A DNA stretch of 29,693 nucleotides from a virus (taxonomy: Duplodnaviria > Heunggongvirae > Uroviricota > Caudoviricetes). Positions 6,901 through 14,349 of this stretch are shown here, in pieces (the stretch's first letter is position 1; each line of letters opens with the position of its first letter). The position numbers and the translations under genes are program-made. Below the pieces are notes generated by a model. That model worked only from the letters and a program-made list of their open reading frames with translations, was not told the DNA's origin and searched no databases. Where the stretch lies: IMG/VR virus record IMGVR_UViG_2778261251_000001; one strand, written 5' to 3'.

Positions 6901-6983
6901 TGACCATCTACATCACTGAGCTTGTAACAGGCCTGCTGGTAATCGCAGGCCTTTTTATTTGGGGGAGAGTAAATCGTGGCTGA
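6900..6983 (+). CDS. 27-aa hydrophobic peptide ORF
   Basis: MTIYITELVTGLLVIAGLFIWGRVNRG*; ATG overlaps the helicase stop (TGATG); one TM-like segment. Could be non-coding. Confidence 0.25.
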   Translation: MTIYITELVTGLLVIAGLFIWGRVNRG

Positions 6984-6987
6984 GTTT

Positions 6988-7182
6988 ATGCTCGTCGCAC
7001 TCAAATGCGTTGGCGTTGGATGGATTCTTCTGACGTTTTTTATTGTTCTGCATAGCTACATTCGTCTTGTGAATGACGGTAAAGACCCATGGTATACGTT
7101 GTTTGGCGCTGCATTTGTCTGGGTGATTATCGGTGTTATGCCTGTCGCTGTAGCAAAAATGGCGTGGCGTTTTGTGAGTTGA
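6988..7182 (+). CDS. small membrane protein (about 64 aa, two hydrophobic segments)
   Basis: ORF track 6976..7182 (GTG start); ATG at 6988 preferred; hydrophobic content suggests two TM helices. Confidence 0.4.
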   Translation: MLVALKCVGVGWILLTFFIVLHSYIRLVNDGKDPWYTLFGAAFVWVIIGVMPVAVAKMAWRFVS

Positions 7183-7199: not shown

Positions 7200-7514
7200 A
7201 TGGACGAATCAAGAAAGCAGTTTGAGGAATACGTTGCCAAAAAATTGAGATTACCATTCGAGATGATAACCGAGGCAAGAAATGGTGATAGGTACTTTGC
7301 ATTTTCAAGCATGGATATTCGTCACTCCTTAAATGAGTGGTGGGCTTTATGGCATGCATCGCGAGCAGCTATTGAAATAACCGCGCCAAAGTTTATCGAC
7401 AGCAGAGAAGCATTAGCCAAAGGGTTTTCTGTTGATTATTCCAATGGCTTCGGTGATGCAATGGATGCTTATGAGGAAAACATCCGCGCTGCTGGAGTCA
7501 AAGTGAAGGAGTGA
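7200..7514 (+). CDS. hypothetical protein, 104 aa, in the ren position
   Basis: Clean ORF co-oriented with early-right genes; no family recognised. Confidence 0.55.
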   Translation: MDESRKQFEEYVAKKLRLPFEMITEARNGDRYFAFSSMDIRHSLNEWWALWHASRAAIEITAPKFIDSREALAKGFSVDYSNGFGDAMDAYEENIRAAGVKVKE

Positions 7515-7516
7515 GT

Positions 7517-7681
7517 ATGAGCGCATACGAAGAAATCATGTTAGCCCTGCGATTCTTTTTCGGTGTGGAAGAAGATGAAAACGTAAATGAGATTATCGGG
7601 CAAGACCATGACCCGATAGGGACTATTGCAGCTGCACTTGACGATTACAGGAGCGTAAATGGTGAGGAAACTAACGTTTGA
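7517..7681 (+). CDS. small acidic ORF, 54 aa
   Basis: Hand-translated MSAYEEIMLALRFFFGVEEDENVNEIIGQDHDPIGTIAAALDDYRSVNGEETNV*; starts 3 nt after the previous stop with GGAGTGAGT upstream; overlaps the ninB start. Confidence 0.4.
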   Translation: MSAYEEIMLALRFFFGVEEDENVNEIIGQDHDPIGTIAAALDDYRSVNGEETNV

Positions 7682-8102
7682 ACTAAGAAGCCCCATCCAT
7701 CAGCAGAACGCCATTCAAGCTATCCAGCAAATCCTTCCAGACCCAATCAAACCAATCGTAGTAACCATTCAGGAACGCAACCGCAGCTTAGACCAAAACC
7801 GAAAGCTTTGGGCTTGCCTTGGTGACGTCTCTCGTCAGGTTGAATGGCATGGTCGCTGGCTGGATGCAGAAAGCTGGAAGTGTGTGTTTACCGCAGCATT
7901 AAAGCAGCAGGATGTTGTTCCTAACCTTGCCGGGAATGGCTTTGTGGTAATAGGCCAGTCAACCAGCAGGATGCGTGTAAACGAATTTGCGGAGCTATTA
8001 GAGCTTATACAGGCATTCGGTACAGAGCGTGGCGTTAAGTGGTCAGACGAAGCGAGACTGGCTCTGGAGTGGAAAGCGAGATGGGGAGATCGGGCTGCAT
8101 GA
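7659..8102 (+). CDS. ninB: NinB (Orf) recombination mediator
   Basis: Long runs recalled from lambda NinB (PIVVTIQERNRSLDQNRKLWACLGDVSRQVEWHGRWLDAESWKCVFTAALKQQDVVPNLAGNGFVVIGQSTSRMRV). Confidence 0.9.
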   Translation: MVRKLTFELRSPIHQQNAIQAIQQILPDPIKPIVVTIQERNRSLDQNRKLWACLGDVSRQVEWHGRWLDAESWKCVFTAALKQQDVVPNLAGNGFVVIGQSTSRMRVNEFAELLELIQAFGTERGVKWSDEARLALEWKARWGDRAA

Positions 8103-8626
8103 CTATCAAATCAAATACGCCAGCACACGACAAGGACTGCTGGCAAACGCCGCTTTGGCTTTTTGATGCACTGGATATTGAGTTTGGATTCTGGCTGGAT
8201 TCGGCAGCGAGCGACAAAAATGCTCTGTGTGCTCACTGGCTAACTGAGGCCGACGACGCGCTCAATTCTGAGTGGGTAAGCCACGGTGCAATCTGGAATA
8301 ACCCACCGTACAGCAATATCAGGCCGTGGGTGGAAAAAGCCGCTGAGCAGTGCATACAACAGCGACAGACGGTAGTGATGCTTGTGCCAGAGGATATGTC
8401 AGTCGGATGGTTCAGCAAGGCTCTGGAGAGTGTCGACGAAGTTCGCATTATCACTGATGGACGGATTAATTTTATCGAACCATCGACGGGGCTGGAGAAG
8501 AAGGGAAACAGCAAAGGCTCCATGCTGCTGATTTGGCGACCGTTCATCAGTCCTCGACGGATGTTTACTACCGTATCCAAAGCGGCATTGATAGCGATCG
8601 GGCAGGGCGTCAGGAGGGCGGCATGA
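8099..8626 (+). CDS. phage DNA N6-adenine methyltransferase (Dam-like, NPPY motif)
   Basis: [16 protein letters not shown] and NNPPYS motifs typical of the phage Dam MTase family; ATG at 8099 overlaps the ninB stop (ATGA), and its own stop overlaps the ninE start. Confidence 0.75.
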
Positions 8627-8799
8627 GGCGACAGCGACGAAGTTTCACCGACATCATCTGCGAAAACTGCAAATACCTTCCAACGAAACGCTCCAGAAAT
8701 AAACGCAAGCCAATCCCAAAAGAATCTGACGTAAAAACCTTCAACTACACGGCTCACCTGTGGGATATCCGGTGGCTAAGACATCGTGCGAGGAAATGA
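8623..8799 (+). CDS. ninE: NinE
   Basis: [58 protein letters not shown] matches recalled lambda NinE. Confidence 0.8.
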
Positions 8800-9203
8800 C
8801 AATGCTTTTAATTCAACCTGGATTTGGCCTTAGCATCAAAAAAGGACACATGTTTGGCGAGAAAGAGTCACAACGAAAAATGGTGTCTATCCGGTTGCCA
8901 TTTATCAGTATTTATTGGCTAAACAGGGAGGCAACAAATTATTGGTATACATGCGCCAGAGCAGCATTTAACGACCCTGACTGGTTTGTGAAAAACCACC
9001 ATGCGGTTCGTCAGGCAAAGAGAAAGGCCAATACGACATACATGAAGGCGTATCGAAAAGCATGGAAAGAACACCGCGATCGATACCAGCAAGACATGGA
9101 AAAGCTTGAATCAGAAAACATGGAATTAAGACGAAAGCTTGGTGAAGCAAAACGAGACATTGATGCTTACAAGCGACTTTTTAATGGTGAAAGCCATGCT
9201 TAG
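8796..9203 (+). CDS. hypothetical protein with basic, coiled-coil-like C-terminus
   Basis: ATG at 8796 overlaps the ninE stop; C-terminal [27 protein letters not shown] has a leucine-zipper-like heptad character; start codon uncertain (track starts at GTG 8760). Confidence 0.5.
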
Positions 9204-9372
9204 CCCATCCCAAACCCTTCAATACCAGAAAGAAAGCGTCGAGCGAGCTTTAACGTGCGCTAACTGCGGTCAGAAGCTGCATGTGCTTGAAGTTCATGTG
9301 TGTGAGCACTGCTGCGCAGAACTGATGAGCGATCCGAATAGCTCAATGTACGAGGAAGAAGACGATGAATGA
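9196..9372 (+). CDS. ninF: NinF
   Basis: [51 protein letters not shown] matches recalled lambda NinF. Confidence 0.8.
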   Translation: MLSPSQTLQYQKESVERALTCANCGQKLHVLEVHVCEHCCAELMSDPNSSMYEEEDDE

Positions 9373-10087
9373 GTTAATAAATGGCAATGCCATCAAAATG
9401 ACAAGCATTGAAATCGCTGAGTTGGTGGGTAAGCGTCATGACAATGTGAAACGTACCATCGAAACGCTGGCTAAAAATGGTGTTATCCGGCTTCCTCAAA
9501 TTGAGGTTTCCGAAAGAATCAATAACTTAGGGTTCAATGTTCAGTACGAGCATTACGTCTTCGAAGGCGAACAAGGTAAGCGAGATAGTATTGTTGTTGT
9601 TGCCCAGTTGTCGCCAGAGTTCACCGCTCGCCTTGTTGACCGCTGGCGAGAGCTTGAAGAAACTGCGGCTAATATCCCCAAAACGCTACCAGAAGCGTTG
9701 CGCCTTGCTGCTGATCTTGCTGAGCAGAAAATGCAACTGGAAAACCAGCTCGCAATTGCCGCACCTAAAGTTGAGTTTGCCGATCGCGTTGGCGAGGCCA
9801 GCGGAATTTTGATTGGAAACTTTGCAAAGGTTGTTGGAATTGGTCAAAACAAACTGTTTGCGTGGATGCGCGATCACAAAATCCTTATTGCTTCAGGTTC
9901 CCGGCGCAATGTGCCAATGCAGGAATATATGGATCGCGGCTATTTCACAGTGAAAGAAACAGCGGTCAATACAAATCACGGAATACAGATATCGTTCACC
10001 ACAAAAATCACCGGGCGTGGCCAACAGTGGCTGACCAGAAAGCTGCTCGATAACGGAATGCTGAAAGTAACAGGGGAGGCTGCTTAA
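9365..10087 (+). CDS. phage antirepressor (Rha/Ant-type N-domain plus KilA-C-type C-domain)
   Basis: 240 aa; N-terminal IEIAELVGKRHDNVKRTIETL resembles the DNA-binding domain of Rha/antirepressor proteins; inserted between ninF and the ybcO/rusA pair. Confidence 0.65.
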   Translation: MNELINGNAIKMTSIEIAELVGKRHDNVKRTIETLAKNGVIRLPQIEVSERINNLGFNVQYEHYVFEGEQGKRDSIVVVAQLSPEFTARLVDRWRELEETAANIPKTLPEALRLAADLAEQKMQLENQLAIAAPKVEFADRVGEASGILIGNFAKVVGIGQNKLFAWMRDHKILIASGSRRNVPMQEYMDRGYFTVKETAVNTNHGIQISFTTKITGRGQQWLTRKLLDNGMLKVTGEAA

Positions 10088-10377
10088 TGGCCAATCTACG
10101 CAAAGAAGCACGCGGCAGAGAATGTCAGGTACGTATTTACGGCGTATGCAATGGCAATCCTGAAACTACAGTTCTGGCACATTACCGGATGGCTGGAATT
10201 TGCGGAACGGGAATGAAGCCTGACGACCTGATCGGCGCATGGGCTTGTAGCGCGTGTCACGATGAAATCGACCGACGCACCCATAATCTCGACAACAAAG
10301 ACGCCAGACTTTACCACCTCGAAGGCGTGATCAGGACGCAGGCGATACTGCTGAAGGAGGGGAAGATTAAGCCATGA
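10087..10377 (+). CDS. YbcO-like DUF1364 protein (Cys/His-rich, putative nuclease)
   Basis: MANLRKEARGRECQVRIYGVCNGNPETTVLAHYRMAGICGTG...CSACHDEIDRRTH resembles E. coli DLP12 YbcO, which precedes rusA there as well. Confidence 0.7.
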   Translation: MANLRKEARGRECQVRIYGVCNGNPETTVLAHYRMAGICGTGMKPDDLIGAWACSACHDEIDRRTHNLDNKDARLYHLEGVIRTQAILLKEGKIKP

Positions 10378-10736
10378 ACGAATATCAGTTTGTGCTTCCT
10401 TACCCGCCGTCGGTGAATACCTACTGGCGAAGACGGGGAAGCCAATACTACATCAGCGATAAAGGCCAGAAATACCGAAAAGACGTTCAGCAAATCATTC
10501 GCCAACTCAAGTTAGACATTTTCACCAAATCACGACTCCGTATCAAAGTCATCGCAGACGTTCCAGACTCCCGCCGCCGCGACCTCGACAACATCCTGAA
10601 AGGTTTACTCGACTCCCTTATCCACGCCGGATTTGCGGAAGACGACGAGCAATTCGATGACATTCGCGTAATTCGTGGTGTGAAAGTACCAGGCGGAAGG
10701 CTTGGAATAAAAATCACCGAACTGGAGAACGTATGA
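10374..10736 (+). CDS. rusA: RusA Holliday junction resolvase
   Basis: 120 aa; LPYPPSVNTYWRRRG and DLDNILKGLLDSL motifs characteristic of the RusA family; overlapping start and stop with neighbours. Confidence 0.85.
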   Translation: MNEYQFVLPYPPSVNTYWRRRGSQYYISDKGQKYRKDVQQIIRQLKLDIFTKSRLRIKVIADVPDSRRRDLDNILKGLLDSLIHAGFAEDDEQFDDIRVIRGVKVPGGRLGIKITELENV

Positions 10737-10921
10737 ACGCCACAATTCAAACGATACCAGAACTTCTTATCCAGACACGAGGCAATCAGACCGAAGTGGC
10801 GAGGAGGCTTTCCTGTGCAAGAGGAACAGTGCTCAAGTACAACAGAGACAGCAAAGGCGAGCGTCACGCAATAGTTAACGGCGTCCTGATGGTCAAACAG
10901 GGCAAGAGGGGAAGACGATGA
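10733..10921 (+). CDS. ninH: NinH
   Basis: ...GNQTEVARRLSCARGTVLKYNRDSKGERHAIVNGVLMV resembles recalled lambda NinH. Confidence 0.75.
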   Translation: MNATIQTIPELLIQTRGNQTEVARRLSCARGTVLKYNRDSKGERHAIVNGVLMVKQGKRGRR

Positions 10922-11815: not shown

Positions 11816-11890
11816 GGGTCAGTCGTATAAAGGTCATTACGGAAGGCTGTTAACCTTCTTATCGTGGTTCGAGTCCACGCTGTCCCGCCA
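11816..11890 (+). tRNA. tRNA-like sequence, anticodon GUU (Asn), possibly slightly degenerate
   Basis: Hand-folded cloverleaf: acceptor GGGUCAG/CUGUCCC (one U-U mismatch), anticodon stem GAAGG/CCUUC with loop CUGUUAA, T-arm CGUGG-UUCGAGU-CCACG, discriminator G then CCA; D-stem has one mismatch. Confidence 0.45.
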
Positions 11891-11895
11891 AATAT

Positions 11896-11971
11896 GCTGG
11901 TTTAGCTCCAATGGTAGAGCGGTCGCCTTGTAAGCGAATGGGTAGCGGTTCAAGTCCGTTAACCAGCACCA
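11896..11971 (+). tRNA. tRNA-like sequence, anticodon UGU (Thr)
   Basis: Hand-folded: acceptor GCUGGUU/AACCAGC (7/7), D-stem GCUC/GAGC, anticodon loop CUUGUAA, T-loop UUCAAGU, discriminator A then CCA, 76 nt; one mismatch at the base of the anticodon stem. Confidence 0.55.
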
Positions 11972-13806: not shown

Positions 13807-14349
13807 ATGAATTATCCAACTATCGTTAACGGCATCGATTTCCGAGAACTGATTTTTGTGGCAAACAACGATCCGGTTACAGATTCTTTTATGGTGGCAA
13901 AAGCATTTGGAAAGCTGCCGAAGAACGTGGTTCGTGACATTGAGCGAACCATAGAAGCTTGCCCTCCTGAGTTTGATACAAAGCTCAACTTTGAGCTTTG
14001 CTATAAAAACAATGAGTTACAGAATGGTAAGCCGCAAAAATTCTACCGTCTACGCAAGGATGGGTTGATGCTTTTGGTTATGTCCTACACCAAAAAAGAA
14101 GCAATGCGTATCAAAATTGCTTACATCAACGCATTTAACTGGATGTACGCCATGCTTCAGGTTGGTCATCGTCAATTTGAAGAAGAGAGAAATGCCGTAA
14201 TGCTGGAGTACATGAAAGAGAAGGATGTTGCCAGCATGTCAGGTCGCCTGCTAAATCGCTGGGGCAAAATTAAGAAGCCACAGTTGCTGGCTAGAATTGA
14301 ACGCCTTGAACAGCACGGGCAAACCGTAATCCCCGGACTCATCAATTAA
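13807..14349 (+). CDS. rha: Rha-family phage regulatory protein
   Basis: 180 aa; N-terminal region FVANNDPVTDSFMVAKAFGKLPKNVVRDIERTIE resembles the Rha family; P22 carries rha at the equivalent position between lysis genes and gene 3. Confidence 0.7.
   Translation: MNYPTIVNGIDFRELIFVANNDPVTDSFMVAKAFGKLPKNVVRDIERTIEACPPEFDTKLNFELCYKNNELQNGKPQKFYRLRKDGLMLLVMSYTKKEAMRIKIAYINAFNWMYAMLQVGHRQFEEERNAVMLEYMKEKDVASMSGRLLNRWGKIKKPQLLARIERLEQHGQTVIPGLIN

Follow-up and report, generated by a model that had tools for sequence, protein, structure and literature searches.

An orphan adenine methyltransferase gene of the PF05869 family in the nin region of a P22-like lambdoid phage

The nin region and its methyltransferase gene

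The window, a stretch of 29,693 nucleotides, represents a P22-like lambdoid mosaic, of which the phages HK620, IME10 and HZ41 cover 46-66% at ~97% sequence identity. Among prophages, the one of E. coli ETEC1738 comes closest, with 99.8% identity across 75% of the query. From the left, the window encodes the superinfection-exclusion proteins gp17 and SieB and then N, followed by a cI-like repressor and cII, and then by an O-like and a DnaB-like P protein. The P gene is succeeded by three small genes of unknown function, ninB, the methyltransferase gene, ninE and a hypothetical gene, and further downstream by ninF, a KilAC/Rha antirepressor gene, ybcO, rusA, ninH, Q and the genes for tRNA-Asn and tRNA-Thr. 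The end of the window is occupied by lysis genes and then by P22-type head and tail genes, with the late region matching P22-like structural genes. Every gene between positions 471 and 14349 could be given either a phage function or membership of a phage family without known function. No restriction-type nuclease was found in the window using Pfam, PHROGs and PADLOC, and the methyltransferase is an orphan without a restriction partner in the window, in agreement with a preliminary sequence-only reading, which had seen no cognate restriction endonuclease among the neighbouring genes.

Four conserved ORFs of the nin region (8796-9203, 6976-7182, 7200-7514 and 7511-7681, all on the + strand) belong to the PHROGs 1511, 1165, 343 and 1603, respectively, which have no known function, and none of them reaches the curated cut-off of a Pfam family. 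For ORF 8796-9203, the 135-aa product gave just weak sub-threshold matches to CagS (Pfam) and LmuB (PADLOC). The Rha/KilAC antirepressor-type gene (9365-10087, + strand) lies within the nin region between ninF and ybcO, and a second Rha-like regulator is encoded after the lysis genes (13807-14349, + strand). The genes for tRNA-Asn(GTT) (11816-11890) and tRNA-Thr(TGT) (11896-11971), both on the + strand, are located between Q and the holin gene, a site that in Stx phages harbours tRNAs and stx. Annotations of related E. coli prophages include this tRNA-Asn/tRNA-Thr pair as well.

The methyltransferase gene and its two junctions comprise the following features:

7659-8102, + strand: ninB/orf, encoding a recombination mediator, the upstream gene (PF05772, E = 1.1e-53)
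8083-8088, + strand: GGGGAG, a putative Shine-Dalgarno-like element 10 nt upstream of the methyltransferase ATG, within the 3' end of ninB
8099-8102, + strand: ATGA, the ninB stop codon (TGA, 8100-8102) overlapping the methyltransferase start codon (ATG, 8099-8101), read directly
8099-8626, + strand: methyltransferase gene (PF05869/TIGR01712, 175 aa), identified from profiles and near-identity to VT2-Sakai orf32
8189-8212, + strand: codons for FWLDSAAS, a putative AdoMet-binding motif I-like segment, with D34 invariant in the alignment
8300-8311, + strand: AAC CCA CCG TAC, codons for the catalytic motif IV NPPY (N68-P69-P70-Y71), read directly and invariant in the alignment
8612-8617, + strand: AGGAGG, the Shine-Dalgarno sequence of ninE, 5 nt upstream of its ATG, within the 3' end of the methyltransferase gene, read directly
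8623-8626, + strand: ATGA, the methyltransferase stop codon (8624-8626) overlapping the ninE start codon (ATG, 8623-8625), read directly
8623-8799, + strand: ninE, the downstream gene (PF05322, E = 4.2e-43, profile positions 1-58 of 58)

As read from the sequence, the methyltransferase ORF runs uninterrupted on the + strand from the ATG at 8099 to the TGA at 8624-8626 and contains 175 codons. The program-made list of ORFs holds a longer in-frame version of 195 aa, which starts with a GTG at 8039. The profile matches begin at residues 2-4 of the 175-aa form, which is also the form annotated in RefSeq.

The position of the gene between ninB and ninE, with an ATGA on both sides, stands as the sequence-only reading had described it, and the identity of both neighbours is supported by their Pfam NinB and NinE matches. 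The translational coupling proposed from these junctions fared less well: the overlaps are real, but they have no specific meaning, since 11 of the 12 junctions within the nin operon (7514-10921) overlap, seven of them through a 4-nt ATGA or GTGA. The remaining overlaps in this operon (+ strand) measure 1, 8, 8 and 23 nt. ATGA packing has been described as a general trait of lambdoid nin regions (PMC8022706). The packing of stops and starts is a property of the whole operon, with nothing particular to the methyltransferase gene.

Family assignment and relation to other adenine methyltransferases

The ORF product matches the Pfam family PF05869 ("Dam") with E = 1.6e-64 and 217.1 bits (cut-off 28.1) over profile positions 1-167 of 169, and the NCBIfam equivalog TIGR01712 ("phage N-6-adenine-methyltransferase") with 264.3 bits (cut-off 97.05) over positions 1-165 of 165. 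These full-length matches indicate a real gene rather than a chance ORF. The product also matches PHROG 111 ('DNA methyltransferase'), and its top model in PADLOC is 'orphan methyltransferase' (oMTase). A sequence alignment with 28 homologues (59-98% identity) shows that F31, L33, D34, A36 and N68-P69-P70-Y71 are invariant. Both the NPPY motif, which the sequence-only reading had noted, and the FxLDxAA segment are undisrupted, and the protein has an intact (N/D)PPY motif IV with an acidic AdoMet-binding segment upstream of it. This AdoMet-binding-like segment (residues 31-38) precedes NPPY (residues 68-71), which is not the order of beta-class enzymes.

The protein has the attributes of a class I SAM-methyltransferase fold of the N6-adenine type and is essentially a bare catalytic domain with no separate target-recognition domain. 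The profile-based homologue search listed the best 120 relatives, none of them below ~58% identity, and the resulting alignment was shallow for AlphaFold, giving a model of only moderate confidence. A sequence search of the PDB produced chance matches only (E > 0.2) and found no solved structure of any family member. On the basis of its profiles and motifs, the protein is a predicted AdoMet-dependent N6-adenine DNA methyltransferase of the phage T1Dam/HP1Dam/VT2Dam family (PF05869).

The Dam proteins of phage T1 and of the Haemophilus phages HP1/HP2 are orphan G(m6A)TC enzymes of the same family (PF05869/TIGR01712), and they share the segment order WxTP, xLDxAA, NPPY with the protein described here. 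T1 Dam (M.EcoT1Dam) shows 33% identity over 158 residues (E = 1e-26), but it is longer (237 aa) owing to an N-terminal extension and an insertion ahead of the GR(I/L)xF segment. It originates from a virulent siphovirus and is encoded outside any nin operon, in contrast to the nin-borne gene of the present phage. Work cited in PMC7139368 reports the identification, purification and characterisation of T1 Dam as a DNA methyltransferase.

In contrast, the Pfam scan of the protein gave no match to PF02086, the family of the alpha-class enzymes E. coli Dam, T4 Dam and DpnM. These enzymes have DPPY in place of NPPY and are longer by ~100 residues, and E. coli Dam and T4 Dam contain a target-recognition domain between motifs I and IV, which is absent here. 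By profile, motif and domain composition, the protein lies outside the E. coli Dam/T4 Dam group. The earlier label of a "Dam-family" enzyme is therefore correct for an adenine methyltransferase whose Pfam family carries the name 'Dam' (PF05869), but it does not extend to kinship with E. coli or T4 Dam.

M.EcoGI/GII and M.EcoGV/M.EcoPA8orf6770P are also prophage-encoded orphans, silent or weakly expressed in lysogens, but they belong to other families and differ in motif order and genome position. The non-specific beta-class enzymes M.EcoGI/GII were rejected as relatives on the grounds that the protein has 175 aa and its AdoMet-binding segment stands before NPPY; M.EcoGII has 349 aa, with DPPY first, a target-recognition domain and FxGxG last (PMC5778455). 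The MT-A70 enzyme of Stx phages (M.EcoGV/M.EcoPA8orf6770P) was likewise rejected, given PF05869 as the sole Pfam match, the NPPY motif and the nin position. The MT-A70 enzyme (gp5) has DPPW, requires the second subunit PNB-2 and prefers 16S rRNA (PMC10810198). M.EcoGIX, which is plasmid-borne and single-strand-specific, was also rejected as a relative, and the Hia5 paper, examined for kinship with non-specific methyltransferases, makes no mention of VT2, HP1 or T1 Dam.

At the DNA level, the gene is 100% identical to the gene of WP_000153277.1, annotated in RefSeq as 'phage N-6-adenine-methyltransferase', in no fewer than 11 complete E. coli genomes. Of 5426 complete E. coli genomes, 1566 (~29%) contain copies with at least 95% identity, nearly always flanked by NinB and NinE, and Sf6, Sf101, HK544, IME10 and many lambda-like isolates share the ninB-dam-ninE block at 97-98% identity. 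The protein search revealed relatives in about 1900 phage records, which include Escherichia, Klebsiella, Vibrio, Lactococcus and Gordonia phages. Thus, the gene is already known and routinely annotated, and its product is an ordinary characterised phage enzyme.

In rare database variants (P0121, P0014, P0002 and P0011), NinB and the methyltransferase form a single protein, or the methyltransferase is fused with NinE or RusA. P0014 contains an apparent deletion between 'WLD' micro-homologies (NinB GRWLDAES and methyltransferase GFWLDSAAS), and P0121 and P0002 show apparent frameshifts at the overlapping stop/start. Designed NinB-Dam or Dam-NinE fusions were rejected as an explanation, since the sequences look like frameshift or micro-homology deletion variants.

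Target sequence and the VT2-Sakai counterpart

Orf32 of the phage VT2-Sakai (NP_050531) is identical to the methyltransferase at 174 of 175 residues, and the one difference (I165 here, M in VT2-Sakai) is conservative and located in the C-terminal helix. The two proteins are of equal length, and orf32 too has ninB and ninE as its neighbours and overlaps them in the same way. The phages themselves differ: VT2-Sakai is an Stx2 phage, whereas the gene described here is carried by a P22-like podovirus mosaic (HK620/IME10/Sf6-type) without stx. The Stx phages Phi24B, Min27 and 933V, as well as HK97, are counted with VT2-Sakai orf32 as having the same 'dam'. Orf32 is the sole DNA methyltransferase annotated in VT2-Sakai; orf4, a 299-aa protein of the left arm considered as a second methyltransferase, was rejected as a DUF551 protein. 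Based on this sole annotation, we take orf32 to be M.EcoVT2Dam. In the work of Radlinska and Bujnicki from 2001, the near-identical VT2 copy was reportedly cloned and GATC specificity was assigned to it.

PMC6602927, with reference to Radlinska & Bujnicki 2001, describes M.EcoVT2Dam of prophage VT2-Sa as an orphan methyltransferase with the target 5'-GATC-3', and Dam-like activity of the VT-2 enzyme is cited in PMC7556043 and PMC7139368. For M.Btr190III, a relative of T1 Dam, experiments have demonstrated the formation of G(m6A)TC together with some activity at off-target sites (PMC4996451). The 174/175 identity to orf32, combined with the GATC reports for M.EcoVT2Dam and its relatives, points to GATC as the target of the present enzyme. 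Its product is almost certainly G(m6A)TC, a predicted specificity taken from the literature, and the target that the sequence-only reading had called unknown can be replaced by the one given for M.EcoVT2Dam. The GATC specificity shared with E. coli Dam is convergent (PMC7139368).

How GATC is read by a 175-residue enzyme without a target-recognition domain is a question for the whole family. The enzyme might have a relaxed or different specificity (off-target sites, ssDNA or RNA), or it might need a partner, such as the ssDNA-binding NinB. The off-target activity of M.Btr190III and the MT-A70/PNB-2 rRNA methyltransferase provide analogies for such behaviour, but we consider it improbable, because the near-identical VT2 enzyme is reported to be GATC-specific when cloned alone and T1 Dam to be a purified and characterised DNA methyltransferase. 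A partnership with NinB is also disfavoured by the operon-wide occurrence of gene overlaps and by the ~1900 phage records of the family, which include many architectures without NinB, for instance those of T1 and of phages of Vibrio, Klebsiella and Lactococcus; the database entries that join NinB to Dam resemble artefacts of frameshifts or deletions. The Orf-family paper contains nothing on any NinB-methyltransferase partnership.

The near-identity to the VT2-Sakai protein also bears on whether the gene is functional. The nin genes are non-essential (PMC8022706), and truncated and fused variants of the methyltransferase are present in databases, as would be expected for an inactive remnant carried along in a mosaic nin region. 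However, this copy is full length, covers the entire TIGR01712 profile, retains all family-invariant residues and differs from a VT2-Sakai protein reported to be active by a single conservative exchange (I165 versus M), so that we regard an inactive remnant as extremely improbable.

The window contains 72 GATC sites compared to 126.5 ± 10.5 expected from dinucleotide-preserving shuffles (1-29693). With a trinucleotide Markov model, the observed/expected ratio of GATC is 0.46, the second lowest among the 16 four-base palindromes after CTAG. GGCC is also low (observed/expected 0.48). One GATC (8088-8091) is located within the Shine-Dalgarno-like region of the methyltransferase gene itself. That enterobacterial phages avoid Dam sites is an old observation. 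The roughly two-fold shortage is mildly curious in a phage with a GATC methylase of its own, and it would be odd if the phage enzyme cancelled every cost of GATC sites. In a further reading, the enzyme might be more than a simple duplicate of host Dam: its specificity might be relaxed or context-dependent, it might act on the single-stranded or recombination intermediates of the co-translated NinB/Orf, and its role might be to switch off MutH-dependent mismatch repair or SeqA binding on recombining phage DNA. In that reading, the two-fold depletion would mark a residual cost of GATC sites that persists despite methylation. We see only a slight chance that this is the case.

Expression and possible role of the enzyme

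One further feature is relevant to the expression of the gene:

6929-6952, + strand: intrinsic-terminator-like hairpin with an 8-bp stem, 6 G-C pairs and the tail TTTTATTT (T-run), at the position of lambda tR2

This strong hairpin stands immediately behind the gene for the DnaB-like replication protein, at the entrance of the nin region, and the + strand between 5075 and 11584 yielded no promoter-like site. By analogy with lambda, we infer that the methyltransferase gene belongs to the pR operon as a delayed-early gene dependent on N antitermination, which would be repressed in the lysogen. It would be transcribed from pR with the rest of the early-right operon, past the tR2-like terminator, and the enzyme would be produced mainly after infection or induction. 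Its translation would occur within a tightly packed series, in which nearly every stop overlaps the next start.

The enzyme may raise GATC methylation on fast-replicating phage DNA independently of a limiting host Dam, and progeny DNA would as a result be fully methylated. Such DNA could resist restriction systems that attack GATC and are inhibited by m6A, for example in new hosts, and would be inaccessible to MutH incision and SeqA binding, with the phage being indifferent to the Dam status of its host. The virion DNA of lambda and P22 is under-methylated by host Dam (PMC8022706), which provides a rationale for a phage-encoded methyltransferase. The selective benefit of a second GATC methylase in a host that has Dam is a question for the family as a whole, and the function of phage Dam enzymes has been described as not well understood (PMC7556043). 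The self-protection or epigenetic role suggested in the sequence-only reading is plausible, with a presumed benefit to the phage. As a whole, it is very likely that the locus encodes an orphan, nin-borne Dam, which most likely methylates GATC, is made mainly after infection or induction and has a presumed protective role.

The orthologue of Phi24B, whose Dam protein is 100% identical to NP_050531, is named dam and has a 528-nt CDS, and its transcript level changes significantly at induction (PMC3342100). The same orthologue was recovered by immunoscreening with a lysogen-specific antiserum, which hints at expression in lysogen cultures, and the authors proposed a role in lysogeny for dam (PMC3342100). 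The same paper also cites the requirement of host Dam for stable 933W lysogeny. These observations would suit an enzyme that is mainly an epigenetic regulator of the lysogen, supplementing host Dam at GATC sites for prophage stability or at host and phage promoters. We consider this role unlikely. Lysogen cultures always hold spontaneously induced cells, and the expression of Phi24B dam shifts at induction. In addition, the gene of the present phage lies past a tR2-like terminator in the pR operon without a promoter-like site of its own, so that repression by cI is expected, and host Dam already methylates GATC, so that additional activity at a low level would change little.

A comparison of methylation between a lysogen and a cured strain, as suggested with the sequence-only reading, would be uninformative in a dam+ host, because host Dam already methylates GATC and the gene lies past the tR2-like terminator in the repressed pR operon.

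An additional observation concerns the Stx phages VT2-Sakai and Phi24B. VT2-Sakai orf71 (24066-32486), an 8.4-kb ORF annotated as 'LPD5 domain-containing protein', is probably the same gene as the 8-kb ORF CM7 of Phi24B, described as having unknown function (PMC3342100).
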